DNA of 37,922 bases from Selenomonadaceae bacterium (GTDB lineage: Bacteria > Bacillota > Negativicutes > Selenomonadales > Selenomonadaceae), in the NCBI GenBank assembly GCA_017484235.1, contig JAFUTM010000040.1, positions 1-37,922 on the forward strand. Reading direction: 5' to 3'. The notes beneath the pieces are model-generated. The model worked only from the letters and a program-made list of their open reading frames with translations, was not told the origin of the DNA and searched no databases. Below are positions 1-32,515 of this stretch, in pieces. How positions within the stretch are numbered: position 1 is the stretch's first letter; every line of letters starts with the position of its first letter. A program made the position numbers and the translations under genes.

Positions 1-152
1 AACGCGCAAATGCTTAGCCCAACGGCGAAACAGTACCTAACGGCGAACCGACGGCGTACGCCGGAGGTAAGCCAATGATGTAAGCCCGACGGTGTAAACC
101 GGAGGTAACATCTAAAGGTGGGCGTCGAGCCTAACGGTAGCACAAAAAGAAA
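1..152 (+). ncRNA. Possible 3' part of a structured RNA or 3' UTR, cut by the window edge
   Basis: All three plus frames close within about 75 nt. Two tandem related hairpins, CGGC-GTAC-GCCG-GAGGTAA and CGGT-GTAA-ACCG-GAGGTAA, show a compensatory C/T:G/A change. The motif AACGGCGAA is repeated, and a strong terminator follows directly. No known RNA family recognised. Confidence 0.2.
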
Positions 153-184
153 CCACGTGTATGGAAACATATGCGTGGTTTTTT
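153..184 (+). terminator. Rho-independent terminator (potentially bidirectional)
   Basis: 11-bp stem ccacgtgtatg/catatgcgtgg with a gaaa loop, followed by TTTTTT and preceded by an A-run. Confidence 0.75.
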
Positions 185-297
185 AATTAGGAATTATGAA
201 TTATGAATAAAAAGCGTTACTCCAATTCAACATTCCTCATTTCTCATTCCTCATTAGAAAATATTCCTCATTCCTCATTCGTCATTCCTAATTGAAT
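185..297. repeat. Heptamer-period array 1 (AATTAGG/AATTATG arm, spacer, then ATTCCTC/ATTCGTC/ATTCCTA arm)
   Basis: Read directly: aattagg aattatg aattatg at 185-205, and attcaac attcctc atttctc attcctc ... attcctc attcctc attcgtc attccta at 225-290. The two arms are in inverted orientation. Confidence 0.85.
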
Positions 298-2009: not shown

Positions 2010-2089
2010 AATGAGGAATGTTGAATGAGGAATGCTGAATTATTGTAAATGTTTATTCCTAATTCACAATTCCTAATTCCTAATTAAAT
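2010..2089. repeat. Heptamer-period array 2 (fills the nfeD-floA intercistronic spacer)
   Basis: aatgagg aatgttg aatgagg aatgctg aattatt, a spacer, then attccta attcaca attccta attccta. The last unit overlaps the nfeD stop codon. Confidence 0.85.
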
Positions 2090-6755: not shown

Positions 6756-6797
6756 ATTCAATGCATAATTCGTAATTCATAATGTAATTCGTAATGA
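6756..6797. repeat. Heptamer-period array 3 (ATTCGTA/ATTCATA variants)
   Basis: attcaat..attcgta attcata..attcgta atgaaaa, immediately abutting the AAATCGCCGAAG start of GC-rich repeat copy B. Lies between the serA start and the upstream gene's stop. Confidence 0.7.
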
Positions 6798-6961
6798 AAA
6801 TCGCCGAAGCGTGATACTTCAACTTAACTTTTGAAAAATCCGCGAGCTGGATGCGAGCGGTCTCCGAGCGCGTCGAACGTGACGTGAGACCAGCGAGGCG
6901 GTTTTCTGCTTCTCTTTGTCCGCACAAAGAGAAGTCTCTATTTTAAAAAATTTAACTTAGC
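6798..6961. repeat. GC-rich dispersed repeat, copy B (joined to heptamer array 3)
   Basis: Same conserved blocks as 298-426. Hairpins ggtctc/gagacc and cttctctttg/caaagagaag (6909-6934). Carries about 35 extra nt relative to copy A. Confidence 0.6.
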
Positions 6962-7002
6962 AACTAATATAAACTTTAAAAATAATCACTTTAACTCAGC
7001 CC

Positions 7003-10000
7003 TCAGCCGAATTTTAATAGAGGAACATTTTGGTTAAGCCTCTCTTTAGCAACGGCAAGCATAAGCTTAATACGGTTGAGCTGATTAACCTCACTGGAAC
7101 CAGCATCACAGTCAATCGCCACAATGTTCGCACCTTCATAATAAGAACGTAACTCGTGCATAACGCCTTTTCCGGTAATGTGATTGGGCAGACAACCAAA
7201 CGGCTGGAGACAAACAACATTGTTAATGCCTTCCTCAATCAGCTTAACCATTTCGCCAGTCAAGAACCAACCTTCACCAGCCATATTGCCGCAACTCACG
7301 TGCCGCGAAGCTAACTTAGCCGTATCCTTAATCGAATAAGGCGCACGGAAATGTTTGCTCTTTTCAAGCGCTTTCTTCATCGGACGACGGAAAAACTCTA
7401 TCAACTGAATAAAAATTTCAGCAAATATCCTGTCCTTACGACTGCCGTCAAGCAGCTTACGCTTGACGACCGCATCATAAGCAGTATATAAGAAGAAGTC
7501 GATAAAATCAGGCATAACCACTTCGGCACCTTCGGCCATTAAAACATTTTCCAGGTGATTGTTCGCGACAGGGTGGTATTTAACTAAAATTTCTCCGACA
7601 ATGCCAACTTTCGGCTTGATAAGCGATTCGTCAATCTCAATGGCATCAAACTGCTTGACGATAGATTTAATATTACGCCTAAAGGACAAGAAGTTGCCGT
7701 TAATTAAATCTTGCTTCGCCACGACCATACACTCATCAAACAGTCTTTGCGTTTCGCCGCGCCGGATTTCATAAGGTGCCATACGGTTTTTAACATTCAT
7801 CAAAAGGTCGCCGTAAACCGCCGCCTTAATCGCGTCCATTAGGCAGTCACGGCTCATTTCAAATTCGTCCGTCTCATCAGGCAGGCCGTAGCAGGCAAAG
7901 ACCGGAACCTGTGGGAAGCCGGCACTTTTAACGGCTTTACGCAGAACGCTGATATAATTAGTTGCACGGCACGCGCCGCACGTCTGGAATAAAATTATAG
8001 ACGTATGCTCAGGGTCACATTCACCAGATTTTAAGGCCGCAATCAACTGACCTATGACGACGATAGCCGGATAGCACATATCATTATTGACGTAGCGAAG
8101 ACCTAAATCAATCGCCGCCTTATCCGGCATCTTCGGTACAACGACTTTATAATTATATTTATTGAGCACAGCCTTTAGTAGGTCAAAGTGAATCGGCGCC
8201 ATTTGTGGTGCCAGAATGGTATGCGTCTTCTTGCAGTCTTGAGTGAATCGCGGACGCTCAATAACTTCAGGTTCGTGATATGCAACTTTTGAACGTCGAT
8301 TTAAAGCGGCAAGCAGTGAACGCAGACGGATACGCGCGGCACCGAGATTAGACACTTCGTCCAGCTTAATCATCGTGTATATGCGCTTATGATTTTCAAG
8401 TATTTCTTTAACCTGGTCCGTCGTCAGCGCGTCCAATCCACAGCCAAAGGAGCTGAGCTGAATCAACGTCAAATTTGGATTCTCACAGGCAAACTGCGCC
8501 GCGTGATATAACCTTGAGTGATAAGACCATTGGTTGACGACGGACAACTTAGGCGACTTGACGGGCAGATGATAAATTGCATCTTCGGATATAATGGGCA
8601 GATTATATGATTGAATCATTTCCGGTATTCCGTGATTAATTTCCGGATCAATGTGATATGGACGGCCAACGAGTAAAATTGCGTGCTCGCCGGTTCTTTT
8701 AATGCGTTCGATGATTTGCTCACCATAATGATTTACGTCCTGGCGATAGTTATCAAGCTCAGCAGCGGCGTGCTCAACTGCGGAGGCAATTTCAGATTTA
8801 GTTATGCCCTCAGATTTAAATTCCTCAGCAAGCCGGTCAATCAGTTTATCTTTATTGTTGACGGGCAGGAAGGGCTGGATAAATTTAATATTCTTTTCGC
8901 GTAAGACGTCCATATTGCCGCGAATATTTTCAGCGTACGAGGCGACAATTGGGCAGTTATAATAATTATCGGAGCGCGTATCAAAATTGTAAGGCTCGCA
9001 CGGATAAAATATTTTAGTAAGGCCGCGCTCGACTAAATCCATAATGTGGCCGTGTGCAAGTTTCGCCGGATAACAGAGCGAGTCACTTGGCACGGTCGCC
9101 ATACCTTTATAATAAAGATTAGCCGTTGACTTGCCGCTGATTATTACGCGGTATTTAAGCTCGGTGAAAAAGGTGAACCAGAATGGATAATCCTCGTAGA
9201 TGTTGAGCGTACGCGGAATACCGATTGTGCCGCGCATTGCAGATTGTTCATCGAGCGGCACATAATCAAAGACGCGCTTATATTTATAAGCGTAAATATT
9301 CGGCACATCACTTTCGGTCGGGCGTTTGCCGCCGACGCCGCGCTCACAGCGGTTGCCGGTATAATACTTGCCGCCGTCAGGGAATTTCTGCATTGTTATC
9401 AGACACTTATTGCCGCAGCCACCACACCTATAGGACTTAGTCTCAACGTTAAATACTTTTAAATCCTCAGCAGATAATACCGTCGACTTTTCATTCCTAA
9501 TTCCTAATTCCTCATTCCTCATTGATAAAATCGCGACGCCATACGCGCCCATAAGTCCGGCAATGTCCGGCCTAATCACTTCACGATTTAACAATTTCTC
9601 AATAGAACGCAGCACCGCATCATTATAAAACGTGCCACCCTGCACGACAATATTTTTGCCCAACGTCTCAACGTCTTTGAGCTGCATAACTTTAAACAGC
9701 GCGTTCTTAATGACTGAAAGTGAAATGCCCGCCGAAATATCACTGACATCGGCACCGTCCTTCTGCGCCTGCTTAACCTTAGAGTTCATAAATACCGTGC
9801 AGCGCGTACCTAAATCAACCGGCGCCTTTGAGGTTAGTGCCTTCTTTGAAAATTCAGCCGCCGTCATATGCAAGCCCTGTGCAAAATTTTCAATAAACGA
9901 GCCACAGCCCGCCGAGCACGCCTCATTTAACGTGATGTTTCCAATCGTTCCGTCATCAACAAAGAAGCATTTCATATCCTGGCCGCCAATGTCCAGGACA

Positions 10001-11274
10001 AAGCTCACCTCTGGACAAAATTCCTGCGCCGCCCTAAGATGAGCAAAGGTCTCGACCTCAGAGCCGTCCGCGTGAAGTGCGGCTTTGACGATAGCTTCAC
10101 CGTAACCGGTTGTAAACACTCCGCCAATTTGCACAGTCGAGGGCATTGCCGCATATAAACTCCGCATTTCGGAAACAACTGTTTTGAGCGGTGAACCTTG
10201 ATTGCTGCCGTAGGAAGTGTAGAGAATTTCCTTATCGCGTCCAATCGCAACGAGCTTAGTCGTCGTGGAGCCGGCGTCAATGCCAACGAAAATTTTGCCG
10301 GCATATTTTGATAAATCACCGCGCTTAACTTTATGGGCGTCGTGACGCTGTTTAAATTTTTCATAATCCGCCGCATCTTCAAATAATACAAAATCGGCCT
10401 GTTTCGTCTCGTTGACTTCAGTCTCGTTTGCCTTGTCGATAGCGGCCTCAAGCCTTGAAACGTCAATTTCCTGTGCTTCGTCAGAGAGAGCCGCGCCCAT
10501 TGCAACGAAATAATTGCCGTCTTCAACTTTAACCACGTGCTCATCATCAAGTTTAAGCGTTTCAATAAACCTGCGCTTCAGCTCAGACAAAAAGTGGAGT
10601 GGTCCGCCCAAAAATGCAACGTTGCCAGTAATAGGTCTGCCCTGTGCCAGATTGCCAATAGTTTGATTTACTACCGCCTGAAAAATGGAGAGAGCAATGT
10701 CGGCTTTCTTGGCACCGTCGTTCATTAGTGCCTGAATATCAGTTTTAGCGAACACGCCGCACCGCGAGGCAATAGTGTAAATCTGTTTGCCTTTCTCCGC
10801 CAATGTATTGAGTCCGGCTGCGTCCGTTGAGAGCAGGCTTGCCATATGGTCGATAAATGAACCTGTGCCGCCCGCGCAGACACCGTTCATACGCTGTTCC
10901 GGTGCCGCGCCAAAGTAAGTTATCTTAGCGTCCTCGCCGCCAAGCTCAACGACCGTATCAGTCTGTGGAATGAACGACTTGACCGCTGTGCTGCAGGCAA
11001 TGACTTCCTGTACAAACGGCAGAGCAAGTTTCTTTGCAATGCCCATACCTGCCGAGCCGGTCAGCGCAAACTTAAAAGTATTTTTGCCAACAAAATCCTT
11101 GAGCGTTGACAGTTCGCTTAAAAGTGCAGTACCAATCTCTGAAAAGTGCCGCGAATAATTTTTACAGACGATTGTTTTGTTAATGGTATTAACTGGATTA
11201 ACCAGGTTACTATTATTATCGTCCAGAACAACGAGCTTGATTGTCGTCGAGCCGATGTCTATTCCGACGTTCAT
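7003..11274 (-). CDS. Fusion of two BcrAD/BadFG-type ATPase (acyl-CoA dehydratase activase-like) modules with a 2-hydroxyacyl-CoA dehydratase-like / DUF2229-type C-terminal region
   Basis: Two copies of the GID.GST..K actin-fold ATPase start (MNVGIDIGSTTIKLVV and FVGIDAGSTTTKLVA). A Cys cluster YRCGGCGNKCLIT is followed by a long dehydratase-component-like region. 1423 aa, GAAGGGTGA RBS. Substrate unknown. Confidence 0.85.
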   Translation of the reverse strand: MNVGIDIGSTTIKLVVLDDNNSNLVNPVNTINKTIVCKNYSRHFSEIGTALLSELSTLKDFVGKNTFKFALTGSAGMGIAKKLALPFVQEVIACSTAVKSFIPQTDTVVELGGEDAKITYFGAAPEQRMNGVCAGGTGSFIDHMASLLSTDAAGLNTLAEKGKQIYTIASRCGVFAKTDIQALMNDGAKKADIALSIFQAVVNQTIGNLAQGRPITGNVAFLGGPLHFLSELKRRFIETLKLDDEHVVKVEDGNYFVAMGAALSDEAQEIDVSRLEAAIDKANETEVNETKQADFVLFEDAADYEKFKQRHDAHKVKRGDLSKYAGKIFVGIDAGSTTTKLVAIGRDKEILYTSYGSNQGSPLKTVVSEMRSLYAAMPSTVQIGGVFTTGYGEAIVKAALHADGSEVETFAHLRAAQEFCPEVSFVLDIGGQDMKCFFVDDGTIGNITLNEACSAGCGSFIENFAQGLHMTAAEFSKKALTSKAPVDLGTRCTVFMNSKVKQAQKDGADVSDISAGISLSVIKNALFKVMQLKDVETLGKNIVVQGGTFYNDAVLRSIEKLLNREVIRPDIAGLMGAYGVAILSMRNEELGIRNEKSTVLSAEDLKVFNVETKSYRCGGCGNKCLITMQKFPDGGKYYTGNRCERGVGGKRPTESDVPNIYAYKYKRVFDYVPLDEQSAMRGTIGIPRTLNIYEDYPFWFTFFTELKYRVIISGKSTANLYYKGMATVPSDSLCYPAKLAHGHIMDLVERGLTKIFYPCEPYNFDTRSDNYYNCPIVASYAENIRGNMDVLREKNIKFIQPFLPVNNKDKLIDRLAEEFKSEGITKSEIASAVEHAAAELDNYRQDVNHYGEQIIERIKRTGEHAILLVGRPYHIDPEINHGIPEMIQSYNLPIISEDAIYHLPVKSPKLSVVNQWSYHSRLYHAAQFACENPNLTLIQLSSFGCGLDALTTDQVKEILENHKRIYTMIKLDEVSNLGAARIRLRSLLAALNRRSKVAYHEPEVIERPRFTQDCKKTHTILAPQMAPIHFDLLKAVLNKYNYKVVVPKMPDKAAIDLGLRYVNNDMCYPAIVVIGQLIAALKSGECDPEHTSIILFQTCGACRATNYISVLRKAVKSAGFPQVPVFACYGLPDETDEFEMSRDCLMDAIKAAVYGDLLMNVKNRMAPYEIRRGETQRLFDECMVVAKQDLINGNFLSFRRNIKSIVKQFDAIEIDESLIKPKVGIVGEILVKYHPVANNHLENVLMAEGAEVVMPDFIDFFLYTAYDAVVKRKLLDGSRKDRIFAEIFIQLIEFFRRPMKKALEKSKHFRAPYSIKDTAKLASRHVSCGNMAGEGWFLTGEMVKLIEEGINNVVCLQPFGCLPNHITGKGVMHELRSYYEGANIVAIDCDAGSSEVNQLNRIKLMLAVAKERLNQNVPLLKFG
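9493..9527. repeat. Heptamer-period array 4, in frame inside the 1423-aa CDS
   Basis: attccta attccta attcctc attcctc attgata. On the coding strand it reads tca atg agg aat gag gaa tta gga att agg aat gaa, giving SMRNEELGIRNE, at the junction between the second ATPase module and the Cys cluster. Confidence 0.85.
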
Positions 11275-11293: not shown

Positions 11294-11454
11294 AATTAGG
11301 AATGTCGAATGAGGAATGAGGAATTAAATAATTGGTAATGCGTAATGCGAAATGCGTAATTGAAAATGCTCAATGCGCAATCCGTAATCGTAATTCATCA
11401 TTCCTAATTCGTCATTCATCATTAAATTAATTTTCTCATTCATAATTCATAAAT
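11294..11454. repeat. Heptamer-period array 5 (longest, about 22 units, many variants)
   Basis: aattagg aatgtcg aatgagg aatgagg aattaaa taattgg taatgcg taatgcg aaatgcg taattga aaatgct caatgcg caatccg ... tcattcc taattcg tcattca. Lies in the divergent promoter region between the 1423-aa gene and the decarboxylase gamma gene. Confidence 0.85.
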
Positions 11455-13281: not shown

Positions 13282-13358
13282 CGGGGCATAGCGCAGTTTG
13301 GTAGCGCACTTCGCTTGGGACGAAGGGGTCGAGTGTTCAAATCACTCTGCTCCGACCA
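13282..13358 (+). tRNA. tRNA-Pro (anticodon UGG)
   Basis: Hand-folded cloverleaf. Acceptor cggggca/tgctccg, D arm gcgc...gcgc, anticodon stem cttcg/cgaag with loop cTTGGga, T arm gagtg-ttcaaat-cactc, encoded CCA. 77 nt. Confidence 0.93.
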
Positions 13359-16907: not shown

Positions 16908-17221
16908 GAGGAGCCGCTTTTTGGTTGACTTTGCCTCTGTCGTTTGTTAAAATAAATCAGAGGTGGTGGTTGAATTGAAAGTTTGAAATTAGATCCTACG
17001 TCAATGAAACAGGCAGCATTGACGTTGACCACGTTGACTGGCGACGCTCTGTTTAAAAGCACAGTTCTAGCGCCCTCAACTATATCGTAATATCGCCTGA
17101 AATCAGTCGGAACGTAATCGACAAACAATGTTAAAAGTAAACCGATAGACTTTGGTCTTACGGCATAGAAGTTGCGTAAACCAGCTCGTGCGAACAAATT
17201 GTTCTCACAAAGCTCTCGTCT
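16900..17221 (-). other. 322-bp coding segment in inverted orientation relative to the flanking gene halves
   Basis: All plus frames are closed, while the minus frame is open for exactly 107 codons between stops lying in the two boundary sites. The sites are CTCGCGACT-TC-AGTCGTGAG (16889-16908) and CTCTCGTCT-TT-AGTCGTGAG (17213-17232). Reverse-complementing the segment gives ...cac gac ttt agt cgt gag ttg..., in frame with the RTX ORF. Confidence 0.7.
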
Positions 17222-18831
17222 TTAGTCGTGAGTTGTTTACAGGAACTAACTATGATGATAATATGCGCTACTTTGGATCAAATGTAACCATAGATGCCGG
17301 CAACGGCAATGACAGCATATTAAGCGGTGCTTCTGACATGGATTATTCAGCAAATAGTGTAGGTTTTGTTACTGGCGGCGATGGTAATGATTCCATTAAT
17401 AATCTGGATTTTTCTGATAACGTCAGTATAAATGGCGGCGCGGGCAATGATAATATCTCCAATCGTTATAGCAATAAAGTCAGCATAATTGGTGGAAATG
17501 GCAATGATTTTATCGAAAATTCCAATAGCAGTGACACTAGCATAAGTGGCGGCGGCGGTAATGATACTATTCTCAATTGGAACGAGAGTGATAATGCAAC
17601 GATAAATGGTGATACGGGCGATGATTCTATCACAAGTTATGCTAATAACACAAGCATAAACGGCGGTTCCGGTGATGATATTATCAACAATCGCGTCTAC
17701 TCTAATGCAAGTATAATGGGTGGAACAGGCGATGATACAATTTATGCTTCTGGAAAGAAACAATTTATTCAATATGCCAATGGCGATGGACACGATATCA
17801 TTTATTATTATCAGGAAGATGACACCATTCAAATAGCCGGTAGCTCTTATTCAACAATGATTAGTGGTGAAGACCTAATTATTAACGTTGGTGACGGCAC
17901 TATGACGCTGAAAGATGCAGCAAATCAAACTATTAATATCATTAGCAGTAATACAGTTGAGCCGATTGACGATAACGACGATTCTGATACTGATAACGAA
18001 ATTGTTTCGCCAATTGACCTTACTTCCAAAAAAGGCATTAAATTCAACAATGCCGAGACAAAAATTGCAATTGATAAAAAATTTGAAGATTCCGCAGTTG
18101 ATTTGTCCAGCTATTCTAAACTCAGAACGATTGACGCCTCTAAGGTCAATAAAAATTTTGAAATCACAGCTAATGACAAAAACAACACCATTAAAGGCGG
18201 CAAGCAATCTGATATTATCAATGGCGATGACGGCAATGATATTATCAGAGGCAACACCGGTAATGATGAACTTAATGGCGAGGACGGTAACGATAAACTG
18301 CTTGGTGGTAATGGCAATGACACGCTTAACGGTGGAGACGGTAACGATACCTTGACCGGCGGCAAGGGCAATGATACTTTTGTTTTTGAAAGTGACAGCG
18401 GTGCCGATATTATTACAGATTATGAATCCGGTAAAGATGCAATTATGCTTGATGACGATATTGAAGCGGTGACCGTCAAAGGCAAAAACGTTATCCTGAT
18501 TGTTGGCGATAATAGCCTCACGATAAAGAAAGCCAAAGGTAAACAGATTGCATTTGTCGATGACGACGGCGAGTATACGTATCAAACGTTTATGAAGTCT
18601 GTCACATTTAATGATGACGACGACGATGATGAGCGCAACTTTGTTGAATCAGATTACTGGTTTGCGGCAGATGACAATTTTATTAATGATGATCTCCATT
18701 CTATTGTTAAAGTTGACAGTATTAATTGTTCTATCAATAATCTGGACACTGTTAATGCATATGACTTCACCGACCTTACGAACAGCACGCAAAAATCTAC
18801 TGCTGTTACATATTCTGAACTCGATAAATGA
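17152..18831 (+). CDS. RTX / hemolysin-type calcium-binding repeat exoprotein, C-terminal part of the disrupted gene (true start uncertain)
   Basis: About 20-aa repeats of I.GG.GND.I.N (17.3-17.75 kb). Classical nonapeptide run GDDGNDIIRGNTGNDELNGEDGNDKLLGGNGNDTLNGGDGNDTLTGGKGNDTF (about 18.22-18.38 kb). Poly-Asp tract. The ORF-track start is a TTG with no RBS, and the first ATG (17266) also lacks an RBS. Confidence 0.7.
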   Translation: MVLRHRSCVNQLVRTNCSHKALVFSRELFTGTNYDDNMRYFGSNVTIDAGNGNDSILSGASDMDYSANSVGFVTGGDGNDSINNLDFSDNVSINGGAGNDNISNRYSNKVSIIGGNGNDFIENSNSSDTSISGGGGNDTILNWNESDNATINGDTGDDSITSYANNTSINGGSGDDIINNRVYSNASIMGGTGDDTIYASGKKQFIQYANGDGHDIIYYYQEDDTIQIAGSSYSTMISGEDLIINVGDGTMTLKDAANQTINIISSNTVEPIDDNDDSDTDNEIVSPIDLTSKKGIKFNNAETKIAIDKKFEDSAVDLSSYSKLRTIDASKVNKNFEITANDKNNTIKGGKQSDIINGDDGNDIIRGNTGNDELNGEDGNDKLLGGNGNDTLNGGDGNDTLTGGKGNDTFVFESDSGADIITDYESGKDAIMLDDDIEAVTVKGKNVILIVGDNSLTIKKAKGKQIAFVDDDGEYTYQTFMKSVTFNDDDDDDERNFVESDYWFAADDNFINDDLHSIVKVDSINCSINNLDTVNAYDFTDLTNSTQKSTAVTYSELDK

Positions 18832-18899: not shown

Positions 18900-18975
18900 G
18901 GGGACGTAGCTCAGCTGGGAGAGCATCAGGTTCGCAATCTGGGGGTCGAGAGTTCAATCCTCTTCGTCTCCACCA
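18900..18975 (+). tRNA. tRNA-Ala (anticodon CGC)
   Basis: Hand-folded cloverleaf. Acceptor ggggacg/cgtctcc with the G3:U70 alanine identity pair, TAGCTCAGCTGGGAGAGC D arm, anticodon loop ttCGCaa, T arm gagag-ttcaatc-ctctt, encoded CCA. 76 nt. Confidence 0.92.
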
Positions 18976-26914: not shown

Positions 26915-27266
26915 TTAAAAATCGCCTGCCTTTCCGTTATGGTAAACTTGGATCGTTCCGTCTTTCCAGTCTGCCAACTCTCCATTGATCGTCCTGATCT
27001 ATGTATTAAATTATAAAACTAATTAAACATAAAAGTCAATACAATTTATGTTTGTTTTATGTTAATTTTAACTTTTTTTTAATTTTATTTAACATAATGA
27101 TTACGATTATCAATTAGCGTAAAAAAAATATAAAATTTATATTGAAATTTTTTTAGATAGTTGCTATAATTTATTTATTAAAGTGCAAAAGTTCAAATAA
27201 ATTCATTTGTTGTTTCGATTTGTTTTTATGTTCATTTTATGTTTATAGTTATTTGTTCAATTTATG

Positions 27267-27295
27267 TTGACTTGCACTTTTTATGAATATATAAT
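27267..27295 (+). promoter_or_regulatory. Sigma-70 promoter for the SLH-porin gene
   Basis: TTGACT (27267-27272), a 17-nt spacer, then TATAAT (27290-27295). About 57 nt upstream of the ATG. Confidence 0.65.
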
Positions 27296-27352: not shown

Positions 27353-28684
27353 ATGAACAAGAAAATTGTTTCAGCAATGACGACCGCATTAGTCGTTGGT
27401 GTGGCGTCAACAACATTTGCAGCGGCAAGTCCTTTTAGTGATTTAGATCCAGACCATTGGGCGTATCAGTCCGTAATGCAGCTTTACAATACGTACACTG
27501 CTGACGGCAAGCGCGTTATCGATGGTATGGGCGATGGTACTTTCCAAGGCAAACGTCCTATCACTCGTTACGAAGTTGCTCAGATGGTTGCGAAGGCTCT
27601 TGCAAGAACCGACATCAGCGGCACTGATAAAGCTGCTCTTGATCGTCTTGCGGCTGAGTTCAGCGAAGAGCTTCAAAGTCTCGGCGTTCGCGTTGCTGAA
27701 CTTGAAAAATATGCTGATAAAGTACAGTGGCACGGTGAAATGCGTTACACTTATCAGAGTAACCGTTTTGACAAAGCTTATGGTCAAAAACAGCATAGAA
27801 ATAATGTCAATGAAAACCTTCTCCGTTTGGAACCAGTAATGGAAGTTAATAATCATTGGAAACTCAAAGCACGTATTGATGCTTCTGATGAAATGTCTAC
27901 AAATACCAGCGGAGATTTAAAGATGCAGCGCGGTTGGGCTGAAGGTCAGTATGGCAGTCTCAATCTTAAAGTTGGTTTGTTTGACGATCTTACGAACTAT
28001 GACCGCAATATGATGTTCTTCAATGAAATGAGCGGTGCTGAAGTTAATTTCGGTAAAGTTTTAAGAACACAAATTCGTGTCGGTCGTCTTAATACAAGTG
28101 ATAACTTGAGGTATGATGATTCTGTCAATCATTTAATAAATTATAATGGTGGTCTTAATACTGGTAGCAAATATAAAAGCAATGATCCGCTCAACGTGCA
28201 AAGTATCGCTTTAACTTATAAGCCAGGAAAAGTCTTATCCTTGACAGGTGCGTATTATCACTTCCAGTCAGACATCTTCCGCAATTCTGCTTATACCGAT
28301 AATATGAGCGAAGATGATGCAAACATTTGGGAAGTTGCACCAACTTTCCGTTTTGGTAAATTCGGTGTTGTAGGCGCATATCTCCGCAATACCAAAGCTG
28401 ATTACTATAAACATTCTCACGTAGTTGAGCTCAATTATGGTCAGGCAAAGAGAGACAGACCAGGTACTTGGATGGCTTATGCATCATATCGTTATCAAGG
28501 TATGAACGTCTCAATGGACGGCGCAAACGATGGCGCAATGTACAACACCAAAGGCTGGGAATTTGGCACACAAATTACTATTATGAAAAATATCCAGCTC
28601 AAGGGCATTTATTTCAAAGGTGAACAGCTCCATAACGGTCAAGATGCTGAAAAACTCTTCGGTCGTTGTGAATGGTTCTTCTAA
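27353..28684 (+). CDS. SLH-domain outer-membrane porin (Negativicutes OM-tethering type)
   Basis: Signal peptide (..TTFAAASPF), an SLH motif (FSDLDPDHWAYQSVMQL...G..DGTFQG.RP.TRYE.AQMVAKAL), a coiled-coil linker, then a beta-barrel-like alternating region ending in aromatic WFF. AGGAGG RBS. Confidence 0.85.
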   Translation: MNKKIVSAMTTALVVGVASTTFAAASPFSDLDPDHWAYQSVMQLYNTYTADGKRVIDGMGDGTFQGKRPITRYEVAQMVAKALARTDISGTDKAALDRLAAEFSEELQSLGVRVAELEKYADKVQWHGEMRYTYQSNRFDKAYGQKQHRNNVNENLLRLEPVMEVNNHWKLKARIDASDEMSTNTSGDLKMQRGWAEGQYGSLNLKVGLFDDLTNYDRNMMFFNEMSGAEVNFGKVLRTQIRVGRLNTSDNLRYDDSVNHLINYNGGLNTGSKYKSNDPLNVQSIALTYKPGKVLSLTGAYYHFQSDIFRNSAYTDNMSEDDANIWEVAPTFRFGKFGVVGAYLRNTKADYYKHSHVVELNYGQAKRDRPGTWMAYASYRYQGMNVSMDGANDGAMYNTKGWEFGTQITIMKNIQLKGIYFKGEQLHNGQDAEKLFGRCEWFF

Positions 28685-30619: not shown

Positions 30620-32422
30620 GTGAATAATAAAATCAGAAACTTTTCAATCATTGCTCACATTGATCACGGCAAATCCACTTTAGCTGATCGGCTTATTGAG
30701 ACGACTGGCACCGTCGAGAAACGCGATATGGCAGATCAGCTTTTAGACAATATGGAACTGGAACGCGAACGCGGCATTACGATTAAGGCGCAGACCGTTC
30801 GTTTAAAATATACTGCAAATGACGGAAACGAATATATATTGAATTTAATTGACACGCCTGGTCACGTCGATTTTACTTATGAGGTTTCGCGGAGTCTTGC
30901 GGCGTGCGAAGGTGCCTTATTAGTCGTCGACGCATCGCAGGGCGTTGAAGCTCAAACACTTTCAAATGTCTACCTTGCGCTTGACAATGATTTAGAAATT
31001 ATTCCGGTTATAAACAAAATTGACCTGCCGAGTGCTGAACCGGAACGCGTCAAAGAAGAAATTGAAGAGGCGATTGGACTTGATGCCTCTGAAGCAATTC
31101 ATTGCAGTGCCAAAACCGGTGAAGGCATCAACGATATCTTAGAAGCCATTGTCAAAAAAATTCCACCACCTGACGGAGAAGCGACTAAACCGCTGCAGGC
31201 GTTGATTTTCGACTCTTATTTTGATTCGTACAAAGGTGCGGTTGCCCACGTTCGTATATTCGACGGTTCTGTAAAAAAGGGCGACAAACTCAAGTTGATT
31301 GCAACCGGAAAAGAATTTGAAGCAACGGAAATTGGATATTTTGCGCCGTCGATGATCGAATCCGGCAAACTTTCCGCCGGTGAAGTCGGATATATATGCG
31401 GCTCGCTTAAAGATGTACGTGACGTTCGAGTCGGTGACACAATTACAAGTATCGAAAAACCGGCACAGGCACTCTCTGGTTATCGTGCGCCGGTGCCAAT
31501 GGTTTTCTGTGGTCTCTATCCAACTGATAGTGCCGACTACGATAACTTAAAGGACGCTCTTGAAAAATTGCAGTTAAATGATGCAGCCTTAGTGTTTGAA
31601 CCGGAAACGTCGGCGGCATTAGGATTCGGCTTCCGATGCGGCTTTTTAGGTTTATTGCATATGGACGTTATACAGGAACGACTGGAACGAGAATATAAAT
31701 TAAAACTTGTGACGACGGCACCGTCAGTTGTCTACAAAGTCACCAAAACTAACGGCGAGAAATTGACCATTGACAATCCGGCTGCACTGCCACCTGCAAC
31801 TGAAATTAAATTTATTGAAGAACCAGTCGTTAAGGCAACGGTTATTGTTCCGTCTGATTATATTGGTGCCGTTATGGAACTCAGCCAGGAAAAGCGCGGC
31901 ACTTATAAATCAATGGACTATATTGATAAGACGCGTGTTATGATAACTTATGAGATTCCGCTCAATGAGATAATTTACGACTTTTTTGATAAATTAAAGT
32001 CTATGACACGTGGCTATGCCAGTCTGGATTATGAACTTAGCGGTTACAATGAGTCAGAATTGGTTAAGTTAGATATTTTGCTCAATGGTGAAATGGTCGA
32101 TGCATTGTCAGCAATTGTGCATAAGACACGCGCCGCACGAGTTGGTCGGGCATTGGCGCTGAAGCTTAAGCGGTTGATACCGGAACAATTGTTTGATATA
32201 CCGGTACAGGCGGCAATCGGCGGGCGTATCATTGCTCGTGAAACGGTTAAAGCTCGTCGCAAAGATGTTTTAGCTAAGTGTTACGGCGGTGATGTTTCAC
32301 GTAAACGCAAACTACTTGAGAAACAAAAAGAAGGCAAGAAACGCATGAAAGCCGTAGGAAGTGTCGACTTGCCGCAGGAGGCCTTTATGGCCGTACTCAA
32401 AGTCGACGACGAAACCAACTAA
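30620..32422 (+). CDS. lepA: Elongation factor 4 (LepA)
   Basis: [35 protein letters not shown] and a C-terminal LepA-specific region (..[29 protein letters not shown]). GTG at 30620 is preferred over TTG at 30617, based on spacing to GAGAGGA. Confidence 0.95.
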
Positions 32423-32426
32423 TAAT

Positions 32427-32515
32427 AATGAGGAATTGTAAATTAGGAATGAGGAATTAAAATAATGCACAATTGAAATAATTCAGCATTCCTCATTCCT
32501 AATTCCTAATTAAAA
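32427..32515. repeat. Heptamer-period array 6 with a perfect 17-bp inverted repeat
   Basis: aatgagg aattgta aattagg aatgagg aattaaa, spacer, then attcagc attcctc attccta attccta. AATTAGGAATGAGGAAT (32441-32457) is the exact reverse complement of 32488-32504. Lies between lepA and the alpha-galactosidase gene. Confidence 0.85.

Follow-up and report, generated by a model that had tools for sequence, protein, structure and literature searches.

Positions 1 to 37,922 of contig JAFUTM010000040.1 (assembly GCA_017484235.1, a Selenomonadaceae bacterium), hereafter the window, are a housekeeping stretch of a diderm Firmicute in which short arrays of a 7-nt repeat, the subject of this report, occur at six loci. 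Pfam annotation identified genes for FloA/NfeD, an amino-acid permease, Ldh, SerA, a 1423-aa BcrAD/DUF2229 acyl-CoA dehydratase activase, OAD gamma and beta, LepA, a melibiase and an SLH-porin, along with PTS genes. The closest proteins to those of the window are from rumen and gut Selenomonadaceae. No transposase was found among the Pfam-annotated genes of the 38-kb window, and no RAYT was seen in it.

The repeat unit is AATGAGG or AATTAGG (together AATKAGG, where K is G or T), which the opposite strand reads as CCTCATT or CCTAATT. An earlier note, made from the letters of the sequence, had proposed a single family in strict 7-nt phase, and this was confirmed: the arrays were seen at all six loci in reads of the sequence, in a phase scan and with Tandem Repeats Finder, which called period 7 at every locus. 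Four in-phase AAT triplets at exact 7-nt spacing occur 27 times on the two strands of the window, against 0.06 expected (100 dinucleotide-preserving shuffles of the window, highest count 2), while the two-unit consensus AATKAGGAATKAGG, allowing at most one mismatch, has 16 matches against 0.03 expected. The six loci comprise 13 heptad arms in 38 kb, 12 of them intergenic:

Locus 1, 185-212, plus strand: purine-strand (F) arm, AATTAGG AATTATG AATTATG AATAAAA, directly after a hairpin and T-run at 150-185.
Locus 1, 221-255, minus strand: arm of four units and a closing unit, AATGAGG AATGAGA AATGAGG AATGTTG AATTGGA.
Locus 1, 259-293, minus strand: second minus-strand arm, AATTAGG AATGACG AATGAGG AATGAGG AATATTT, whose outer flank GGCGATTTATTC is the start of a 150-nt repeat (repeat A, below).
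Locus 2, 2010-2044, plus strand: arm ending 18 nt before the floA ATG.
Locus 2, 2051-2085, minus strand: arm in mRNA sense, its first AA overlapping the nfeD stop codon TAA (2084-2086).
Locus 3, 6760-6797, plus strand: single variant arm, AATGCAT AATTCGT AATTCAT AATGT AATTCGT AATG, with one 5-nt unit.
Locus 4, 9489-9523, minus strand: arm within the activase coding sequence (CDS; 7003-11274, minus strand), in mRNA sense and in frame, encoding MRNEELGIRN in a variable linker.
Locus 5, 11294-11328, plus strand: left arm, AATTAGG AATGTCG AATGAGG AATGAGG AATTAAA, with 19 nt between its outer end and the activase start downstream on the minus strand (11274).
Locus 5, 11330-11392, plus strand: inner variant array of nine AATGCGT-type units between two canonical arms.
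Locus 5, 11389-11423, minus strand: right arm, AATGATG AATGACG AATTAGG AATGATG AATTACG, which pairs with 11294-11328 in the predicted fold.
Locus 5, 11430-11454, minus strand: degenerate extra arm, ATTTATG AATTATG AATGAGA.
Locus 6, 32427-32461, plus strand: purine arm starting 4 nt after the lepA stop codon (32420-32422).
Locus 6, 32477-32511, minus strand: second arm, its outer end 21 nt before ATG 32533, which itself follows a GAGGTGA Shine-Dalgarno sequence.

The earlier description of most loci as two arms around a short spacer needed refinement: all six loci are real, with three arms at locus 1 and, at locus 5, two canonical arms around the nine-unit AATGCGT array plus the degenerate arm. 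Its observation that the arms of a pair are inverted and only partly complementary stood (a perfect 17-bp match at locus 6, poorer pairing at locus 2), as did the variety of contexts, since arms were seen after an operon, between cistrons, in a divergent promoter region and in a CDS. With each arm written from its outer end inwards, 10 of the 12 window arms compared consist of four AATKNNG units followed by one closing AAT unit (AATTATT, AATTAAA, AATAAAC and similar), giving a length of ~35 nt. The invariant part of the unit is G-AAT-K and the remaining positions, 5-7, are variable. In a test for polar growth no gradient of decay was seen along the arms, the sole asymmetry being the closing AATK unit on the inner side. 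Five is the commonest number of phased AATs in a set of 237 arrays taken from other genomes (35, 64, 87 and 21 arrays with three, four, five and six, respectively), with pure-unit runs of three, four and five units counted 139, 93 and 15 times. The arrays are not a free-running microsatellite, as the size of the arm is fixed.

We are confident of the following, taken as one claim. The building block is a module of ~31-35 nt, with the consensus (AATKAGG)4 plus a closing AAT(TA) and a G-AAT-K core; a module stands alone or forms a convergent pair with another (5'-purine arm … pyrimidine arm-3'), the outer AAT ends abutting the boundaries of open reading frames (ORFs); and the loci belong to a dispersed, high-copy heptanucleotide intergenic repeat family, an AT-rich member of the class that includes STRR, GGGAATC, GGGGAYT and TAACTGA repeats (LSSR5-11).

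Placement of the arms is far from random with respect to genes. In the window, the outer AAT end of every arm adjoins either a gene boundary or some structural element. The pair at locus 2 occupies the entire intercistronic spacer between nfeD and floA (both on the minus strand), and the outer end at locus 3 lies 21 nt upstream of the serA start (6738, minus strand), with a pyrimidine-type NNNNATT arm on the serA mRNA. At locus 6 the mechanical ORF call downstream of the arms starts at GTG 32524 rather than at ATG 32533. From 223 loci outside the window, 29 of the 218 classifiable arrays lie inside ORFs. Paired arms run 5'-AATKAGG…CCTMATT-3', purine then pyrimidine, in 27 cases against 1 in the reverse order, and a pyrimidine arm is present within 250 nt on the 3' side of 25% of purine arms and on the 5' side of 3%, against a background of ~5%. 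Between co-directional genes, purine arms on the sense strand lie a median of 6 nt from the upstream stop codon, many of them supplying the stop codon of the upstream gene themselves (offsets -6 and -13), while antisense arms lie a median of 29 nt before the downstream start, so placed that the pyrimidine arm stops just short of the ribosome-binding site. Stop codons as the general cause of this polarity were considered and rejected, because the GGGAATC arrays discussed below show the same polarity without containing a stop codon in any frame.

No flanking direct repeats that could represent target-site duplications were found at 28 paired elements, and their spacers, from 10 to ~300 nt long (10-295), lack a conserved core and are unrelated between loci. 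The target-site duplications and conserved internal sequence typical of a MITE were both missing. All-against-all BLASTP of the ORFs of 120 loci revealed no recurrent transposase or nuclease beside the arrays; the sole recurrent neighbour family, in 16 of the 120 loci, is generic and presumably consists of ABC ATPases. A CRISPR array was also excluded, the units being contiguous 7-mers and the arms inverted rather than direct. The earlier note had set simple terminators, CRISPR and REP aside, and here we agree: there is no terminator call at any array, the 7-mers are contiguous, and the arms have neither the GTAG nor the palindromes of REP units.

The family extends well beyond the window. Exact AATKAGGx3 is present at ≥120 loci, counting one genome per species, against ~2 expected in 596 Gb of uniform composition. 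Judged by record titles, at least 15 phyla are represented among the matches listed: Bacteroidota, Clostridia, Negativicutes, Acidobacteriota, Verrucomicrobiota, Chloroflexota, Cyanobacteria, Patescibacteria, Planctomycetota, Campylobacterota, Actinomycetota, Spirochaetota, Fibrobacterota, Myxococcota and others, with the repeat abundant in records titled Bacteroidales. Carriers among these same matches include isolates and closed long-read assemblies, the cultivable ones being Hymenobacter rubidus DG7B, Phocaeicola faecicola AGMB03916, Calothrix parasitica NIES-267 and Chitinophagaceae 26-R-25. In IMG/VR, phage contigs contain 103 AATKAGGx3 stretches against 15 for the same-composition control ATAKGAGx3; AGTKAAGx3, intended as a second control, is another abundant heptad (ARTKARG-like) and no clean control. 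One phage contig has elements between its portal, scaffold and capsid genes, and near-identical composite elements recur within one phage contig. In the DNA of the matched loci, arrays of period 7 number 263, against 43, 12 and 9 for periods 6, 8 and 9. Heptad arrays other than those of the ascertained unit are built from many units, with enrichment of AATT (23 against 5.4 expected) and GAAT (19 against 7.4). In gut and rumen metagenomes that contain the source genome, array bins have 5-100x the contig depth of their flanks, and contigs stop in arrays and continue into many different flanks. The possibility raised earlier that the arrays are confined to the window is contradicted by these data, the family being genome-, community- and phylum-wide.

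Closer to the source genome, of which the 38-kb window was examined, the picture is uneven. Period-7 arrays are present in 4 of 85 loci from related Negativicutes (~570 kb), 10 arrays in all, five of which are in L123, a rumen Selenomonadaceae contig with ten arms in 20 kb; per locus, the window has seven such arrays and L123 five. The close relatives L122 and L125 have no arrays. Close relatives mostly lack the AATKAGG repeat, and its abundance is sporadic and lineage-specific.

Some further observations concern phages. IMG/VR contig 3300021256_000006 (L133, L136, L148, L161, L162, L169, L199; 100 kb) has at least eight separate AATKAGGx3 arrays, a density close to that of the window. In contigs of rumen Clostridia and phages, heptad arms enclose back-to-back terminator-like hairpins, GAAATCC-N3-4-GGATTTC then T-runs (L130 at 338-569, 968-1131 and 2208-2357; also L151, L141, L156, L104 and L013), and several of these elements have in common a TTCCGACCGAAGGGAGGAA Shine-Dalgarno module followed by the next ATG. 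Taken together, arms, hairpins and TTCCGACCGAAGGGAGGAA module have the appearance of an intercistronic cassette repeated between the phage genes for portal, scaffold and capsid.

The earlier note recognised no known repeat class in these arrays, a view we revise: heptameric intergenic simple sequence repeats (SSRs) fit feature by feature (PMC4692102, PMC4679880). Head-to-tail 7-nt units, dispersed and mostly non-ORF copies, a preference for four units, convergent pairs and sporadic occurrence among lineages are all found here. The closest described relatives are the GGGAATC repeats of Xanthomonas and the GGGGA(C/T)T repeats of Nostoc PCC 7120 (Rehm et al. 2015; consensus (GGGANTN)n; PMC4692102). 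In these heptamers 'the majority comprise four repeat units', 70-75 convergent plus/minus pairs occur per genome and 89-93% of copies are intergenic; they lie on the coding strand 0-50 bp downstream of ORFs, some overlapping the stop codon, while upstream of ORFs the G-rich strand is the non-coding one. They have no link to insertion sequences, there is evidence of transcription, and their function 'remains to be elucidated' (PMC4692102). AATKAGG has in common with them the 7-nt tandem structure and the G-A-A-T core (GGGAATC rotates to AATCGGG), as well as the intergenic bias, the four units, the convergent pairs and the polarity towards ORF ends; its copies are likewise dispersed, transcribed and without a link to insertion sequences. 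It differs in being AT-rich, with GG or no G-run and variant arms lacking any GG, in spanning many phyla and phages, and in having coding-linker copies that arose by replacement. ViennaRNA with G-quadruplex energies predicts no quadruplex for AAUKAGGx4, whereas GGGAAUCx4 forms one at -8.4 kcal/mol. A G-quadruplex can therefore not explain the four-unit rule here.

Other heptamers fall further away. Heptanucleotide repeats have been described in bacteria since 1990, and in the STRR (Mazel 1990) and LSSR5-11 (Mrazek 2007) surveys, as relayed by later papers (PMC4679880, PMC4692102), they are the most abundant long-unit SSR. As summarised there, those repeats resemble AATKAGG as heptamer tandems that are sporadic among lineages, mostly intergenic and no phase-variation devices, but they reach tens of units and are described as slippage-prone, whereas AATKAGG arms are capped at four plus a closing unit and the arrays are unchanged between two strains. 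The TAACTGA repeats of marine Beggiatoaceae, cyanobacteria and some Bacteroidetes (MacGregor 2015; PMC4679880) provide another case of a heptamer common to distant phyla with no evident mechanism of transfer, occurring as 2-6 copies per set near start codons with other heptamers mixed in and occasional ORF copies. The unit is different, however, and TAACTGA is mostly forward and just upstream of starts, with a single indirect repeat among 170 sets, whereas inverted pairs of AATKAGG are common and its purine arm follows stops.

Likeness to the REP/BIME/REPIN elements (Bertels and Rainey 2011; PMC3116915) is functional rather than familial. These too are ~35-nt extragenic repeats that form inverted doublets with variable spacers and hairpins in single-stranded DNA or mRNA, reach hundreds of copies per genome in lineage-specific families, and occur as singlets beside doublets (PMC3116915). 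REP units, however, are imperfect palindromes with GTAG and are linked to RAYT, and REPIN stems show compensatory changes. Since AATKAGG arms are tandem heptads that are not self-complementary and lack GTAG, and no compensation was seen between paired arms at the K position, assignment to this family fails. REP/REPIN is the closest functional analogue of the paired form. Two more systems bear comparison. Rickettsia palindromic elements are selfish, 100-150 bp long and palindromic, and are inserted in frame in protein genes; like AATKAGG they are tolerated in coding sequence, where they add or replace surface or linker peptide, although the heptad module, at 21-35 nt, replaces a similar length of variable linker. 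The omega ribbon-helix-helix repressor of inc18 plasmids binds contiguous 7-bp WATCACW heptads, one dimer per heptad, in units that likewise abut without spacers and run in direct, convergent or divergent orientation; its arrays lie at a few plasmid promoters and centromeres, whereas AATKAGG is found at hundreds of chromosomal gene-end sites. A literature string search with tandem 14-mers found no bacterial paper in the library searched. What is new is the AATKAGG unit itself, its distribution across phyla and phages, the four-unit and polarity rules without G-quadruplex potential, and the replacement copies in coding linkers.

How arrays arise is best seen where homologues with and without them can be aligned. 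At the activase linker (locus 4), array-free homologues read ...A ATG CAG AAT GAA..., which amounts to one and a half units, and the linkers of the window and L123 are exactly 21 nt (three units) longer, the gain adjoining the native AATGCAGAATGAA proto-repeat. Other heptad-derived peptides occupy the same linker in homologues (MQNAECRMQN, MRNAQCVMRN, IRNYELGIRN and MQNYELRIKN). At two sites of the L123 activase CDS, native codons have given way to a complete 35-nt module with its closing AATTATT, for a net gain of +6 nt each, and unit-like native sequence lies at both borders of the replacement modules. As judged from these alignments, the module appears to replace native sequence in coding regions rather than simply inserting. 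The L123 gene has three heptad modules in its CDS (7586-7620, 8298-8332 and 8829-8863), one sense and two antisense, the antisense ones encoding ...SAFRIPHSEL... and ...NSEFRIPHSEL...; the activase family evidently tolerates modules in three surface linkers.

Once formed, arrays seem to be kept canonical in some lineages and not in others. The linker array is the longest identical run (33 nt) between the activase genes of the window and L123, which are 77% identical overall and 50% at third positions, while of the two copies at a site common to L123 and L124, the one in L124, which is array-poor, has decayed. The earlier note had suggested that slippage might show as copy-number polymorphism between strains. 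This was not what we found: in a second assembly (GCA_017479245.1, L121) the lepA region is 99.46% identical and both arrays of locus 6 are the same to the letter, without indels, in a comparison that comprises one clean pair of strains because metagenome contigs end in arrays. Orthologous sites were compared at the nfeD-floA junction, since relatives at 87-88% are not syntenic around the activase gene. In the four closest relatives this junction is a 10-20-nt spacer without arrays, and in two other lineages it contains different periodic two-arm elements starting at the same stop codon. One of these, in L359 (~2340-2440), has an 8-nt period of GATGGAAA type; the other, in L368 (~2880-2985), is a TAGGTKT/CCTAANN heptad pair whose TAGGTKT unit is similar to the native ...AAATTTAG|G. 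A single stop-codon/Shine-Dalgarno junction seems to have been colonised repeatedly and independently.

The account that we favour, tentatively and at somewhat less than even probability, is that AATKAGG is a self-propagating and largely selfish repeat, spread by templated conversion or template switching, with the hairpin incidental. New copies would start where the sequence already approximates one or two units, for example at a stop-codon/Shine-Dalgarno junction or in a linker that reads A-ATG-MRG-AAT-G; such sites would be patched from another array by homology- or microhomology-templated copying (ectopic conversion or template switching), with neither cut-and-paste transposition nor free slippage involved. 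Local duplication of units would homogenise the variable positions within an array, and arrays would stay canonical through the same process in genomes with an active family but decay elsewhere. Selection would confine modules to the space just outside ORFs and to tolerant protein linkers, and would fix polarity by favouring the purine strand, with TAG or TGA in all three frames, after stops and the G-poor strand, lacking ATG, before ribosome-binding sites. Where paired arms are transcribed, an imperfect hairpin would form at the base of the intergenic spacer and might, like REP/REPIN elements, have side effects at the 3' ends of mRNAs or on termination close to the stop codon. Templated copying rather than insertion is suggested by the +6-nt net change at the L123 replacements, the 21-nt linker gain, the lack of target-site duplications and the lack of a recurrent neighbour gene, and also by the nfeD-floA junctions, array-free in the closest relatives and occupied elsewhere by other periodic elements at the same stop. 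The 33-nt identity in otherwise diverged genes and the decay in L124 suggest concerted maintenance.

Several considerations weigh against this account. The conversion model draws on three coding sites and one intergenic junction, read by comparing sequences. The strict four-unit size, the identical unit across phyla and the invariant GAAT core fit a recognition factor more naturally than neutral copying, and selection on stop codons cannot explain why the stop-free GGGAATC repeats have the same polarity. Several elements lie in phage structural operons, which argues for a function or an active mobilising mechanism, and a co-distributed gene, such as a RAYT-like transposase, may be present elsewhere in the genome, beyond the 38 kb examined. 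We rank the self-propagating repeat ahead of a heptad-reading factor, a REP-like hairpin, a transposase-mobilised miniature element and a CsrA sponge, in that order.

The first of these alternatives, doubtful as it is, takes up some of the same points. Here the module would be the platform of an oligomeric protein that reads G-AAT-K once every 7 nt. The target of the protein could be single-stranded RNA or DNA, as for TRAP at (G/U)AG or HutP at UAG-N4 sites, or duplex DNA, as for omega at its heptads; the arrays would mark gene boundaries and influence termination, translation or nucleoid structure, and their distribution would follow that of a horizontally transferred gene for the factor. A size of four units that is fixed in the window, across phyla and in Xanthomonas, here without G-quadruplex potential, speaks for such a protein, and both this size and the tolerated G/T position are compatible with one, as they are with the one-face protein-binding array raised in the earlier note: the GAAT core is invariant, with K free and uncorrelated between arms. 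The strict polarity towards ORF ends, the presence of the unit in at least 15 phyla and in phages, and an array that is identical between genes 77% identical point the same way. Yet no candidate protein was found and none recurs beside the arrays among the ORFs of the 120 loci, positions 5-7 differ widely between arrays (AATGCGT, AATTCGG, AATTATG), the orthologous sites in the nearest relatives lack arrays, and CDS arrays are tolerated in either orientation, which argues against a strong roadblock or regulatory effect. More broadly, and with rather low probability in our estimation, the modules may be the footprint of a horizontally transferred trans-acting system, either a heptad-reading protein or an enzyme that writes or copies ~31-35-nt patches at gene boundaries. 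Were this so, the system would operate in many phyla and their phages, would unify the STRR, GGGAATC, TAACTGA and AATKAGG repeats as 'gene-boundary punctuation', and would explain the four-unit rule, the ORF-end polarity, the replacement copies in CDS and the restriction of canonical arrays to some lineages.

Selection of the arms for pairing in the transcript, as a REP-like cis-acting RNA hairpin, is in our judgement unlikely. Such a stem would shield the upstream cistron from 3' exonucleases, reduce read-through or, as is reported for E. coli REP elements that start within ~15 nt of the stop codon, cause the terminating ribosome to stall; the purine arm here lies at, or a few nt from, the stop. 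The two-arm loci were folded, a check proposed in the earlier note. The folds predicted for paired loci are long, imperfect hairpins whose stability exceeds that of shuffled sequences (z-scores of -2.5 for locus 2, -4.9 for locus 6, about -6 for locus 5 (-6.0) and about -3 for locus 1), the stems being held by GAAU/AUUC cores with a mismatch or bulge in most units. The K position, however, agrees between paired arms in 47-56% of units against 50% by chance, and in one pair (L090) it reads GGGG in one arm and TTTT in the other. As this position is uncorrelated between arms, selection does not seem to act on the hairpin itself. Elements do lie within operons, including the phage portal-scaffold-capsid operon, and array sequences are present in metatranscriptome contigs: in four metatranscriptomes, array-bearing contigs come from other loci and the source genome is barely covered, too thinly for discrete RNAs or 3' ends to show. 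Some elements in Clostridia and phages have inner GC-rich extensions (AATGGCGG...CCGCCATT) and terminator-like hairpins between the arms. Against this, a partner arm is missing for about three quarters of arrays, a divergent promoter region and CDS contain arms as well, and arrays are not conserved at orthologous junctions. A consensus scan called no intrinsic terminator at any array, the AU-rich stems having periodic mismatches and no U-tract after them.

Mobilisation as a MITE- or REPIN-like miniature element is less likely again. The convergent pair would replicate with its arms as terminal inverted repeats and a transposase acting in trans, single arms being decayed remnants. The single polarity of the arms (27:1), their discrete size, the high copy number with lineage-sporadic distribution, the copies in phage genomes and the near-identical composite elements within one phage contig would all fit, and REPINs are likewise inverted doublets with variable spacers (PMC3116915). 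The lack of target-site duplications does not fit, nor do spacers of 10 to ~300 nt without a conserved core, arms that are not palindromes and lack the REP GTAG, and the lack of a transposase in the window or recurring beside arrays. Moreover, CDS copies replace sequence for a net +6 nt with no full element added, and at the K position paired arms are no more alike than random arms.

A CsrA/RsmA-titrating RNA, floated in the earlier note on the grounds that AGGAAUG units resemble multi-GGA sponge sites, is very improbable: AATKAGG units do provide a GGA every 7 nt, but variant arms (AATGCGT, AATTCGT) have none, half of the arms present the GGA-free complement on the transcript, the GGA of arms sits in stems rather than loops in predicted folds, no discrete promoter-to-terminator small RNA unit is evident in the terminator scan, no RNA family in Rfam matches the arrays even at E≤1, and the unit is abundant in genomes titled Bacteroidales, a group from which CsrA is not known.

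AATKAGG separates features that were confounded, because the four-unit preference and the ORF-end polarity recur in a unit unable to form a G-quadruplex; an explanation of these rules by G-quadruplexes is unlikely to be general, since they hold in an AT-rich unit without that potential. The unit is present in at least 15 phyla and in phages yet mostly missing from close relatives, it overwrites coding linkers with little change in length, and one array is identical across genes that are 23% diverged. Together, these observations of distribution, overwriting and identity make it a concrete question whether a factor writes or reads heptads. There is also a practical side: arrays break short-read assemblies and, at stop codons, can extend or truncate ORF calls.

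Rfam searches bear on the arrays and on the rest of the window. With Rfam 15 at gathering threshold, the window and 15 related loci yielded two tRNAs as the only matches; the two tRNA genes of the window are on the plus strand at 13282-13355 and 18900-18972. At E≤1, a search of the window and the phage contigs L130 and L151 revealed no family at the arrays, so that a catalogued Rfam family, one of the outcomes envisaged earlier, was not what emerged. An AsrC match within lepA (30629-30696), at 29 bits against a gathering score of 111 bits, is probably due to chance.

Two features adjoin the heptad arms. The ~150-nt repeat A is present at 292-445 and 6832-6985, the copies being 76% identical and each directly beside a heptad arm; one of the two is found in the stretch from the activase stop to the serA leader. 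The repeat has GC-rich segments and can form a hairpin whose stem is 12 bp long (6908-6935), and no Rfam family matches it. At the left end of the window (1-185), the first 150 nt have stops in all three plus-strand frames, followed by the hairpin and T-run at 150-185, again with no Rfam match; at about positions 59-143, metagenome contig depth is 5-10x that of neighbouring genes. An unannotated RNA, conserved or multicopy, may have its 3' end here.

The window also contains repeats of other kinds. Two T-rich arrays with an 11-nt period, TTTATGTTTAT-like, lie at 27045-27090 and 27224-27268, within the long intergenic region that precedes the SLH/porin gene (27353-28684); phased near one helical turn, they might bend the DNA upstream of its promoter. 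The largest family of direct repeats in the window (D1, D8, D16) corresponds to the many GGxGxD-type RTX calcium-binding nonapeptide repeats encoded by the ORF at 17152-18831.

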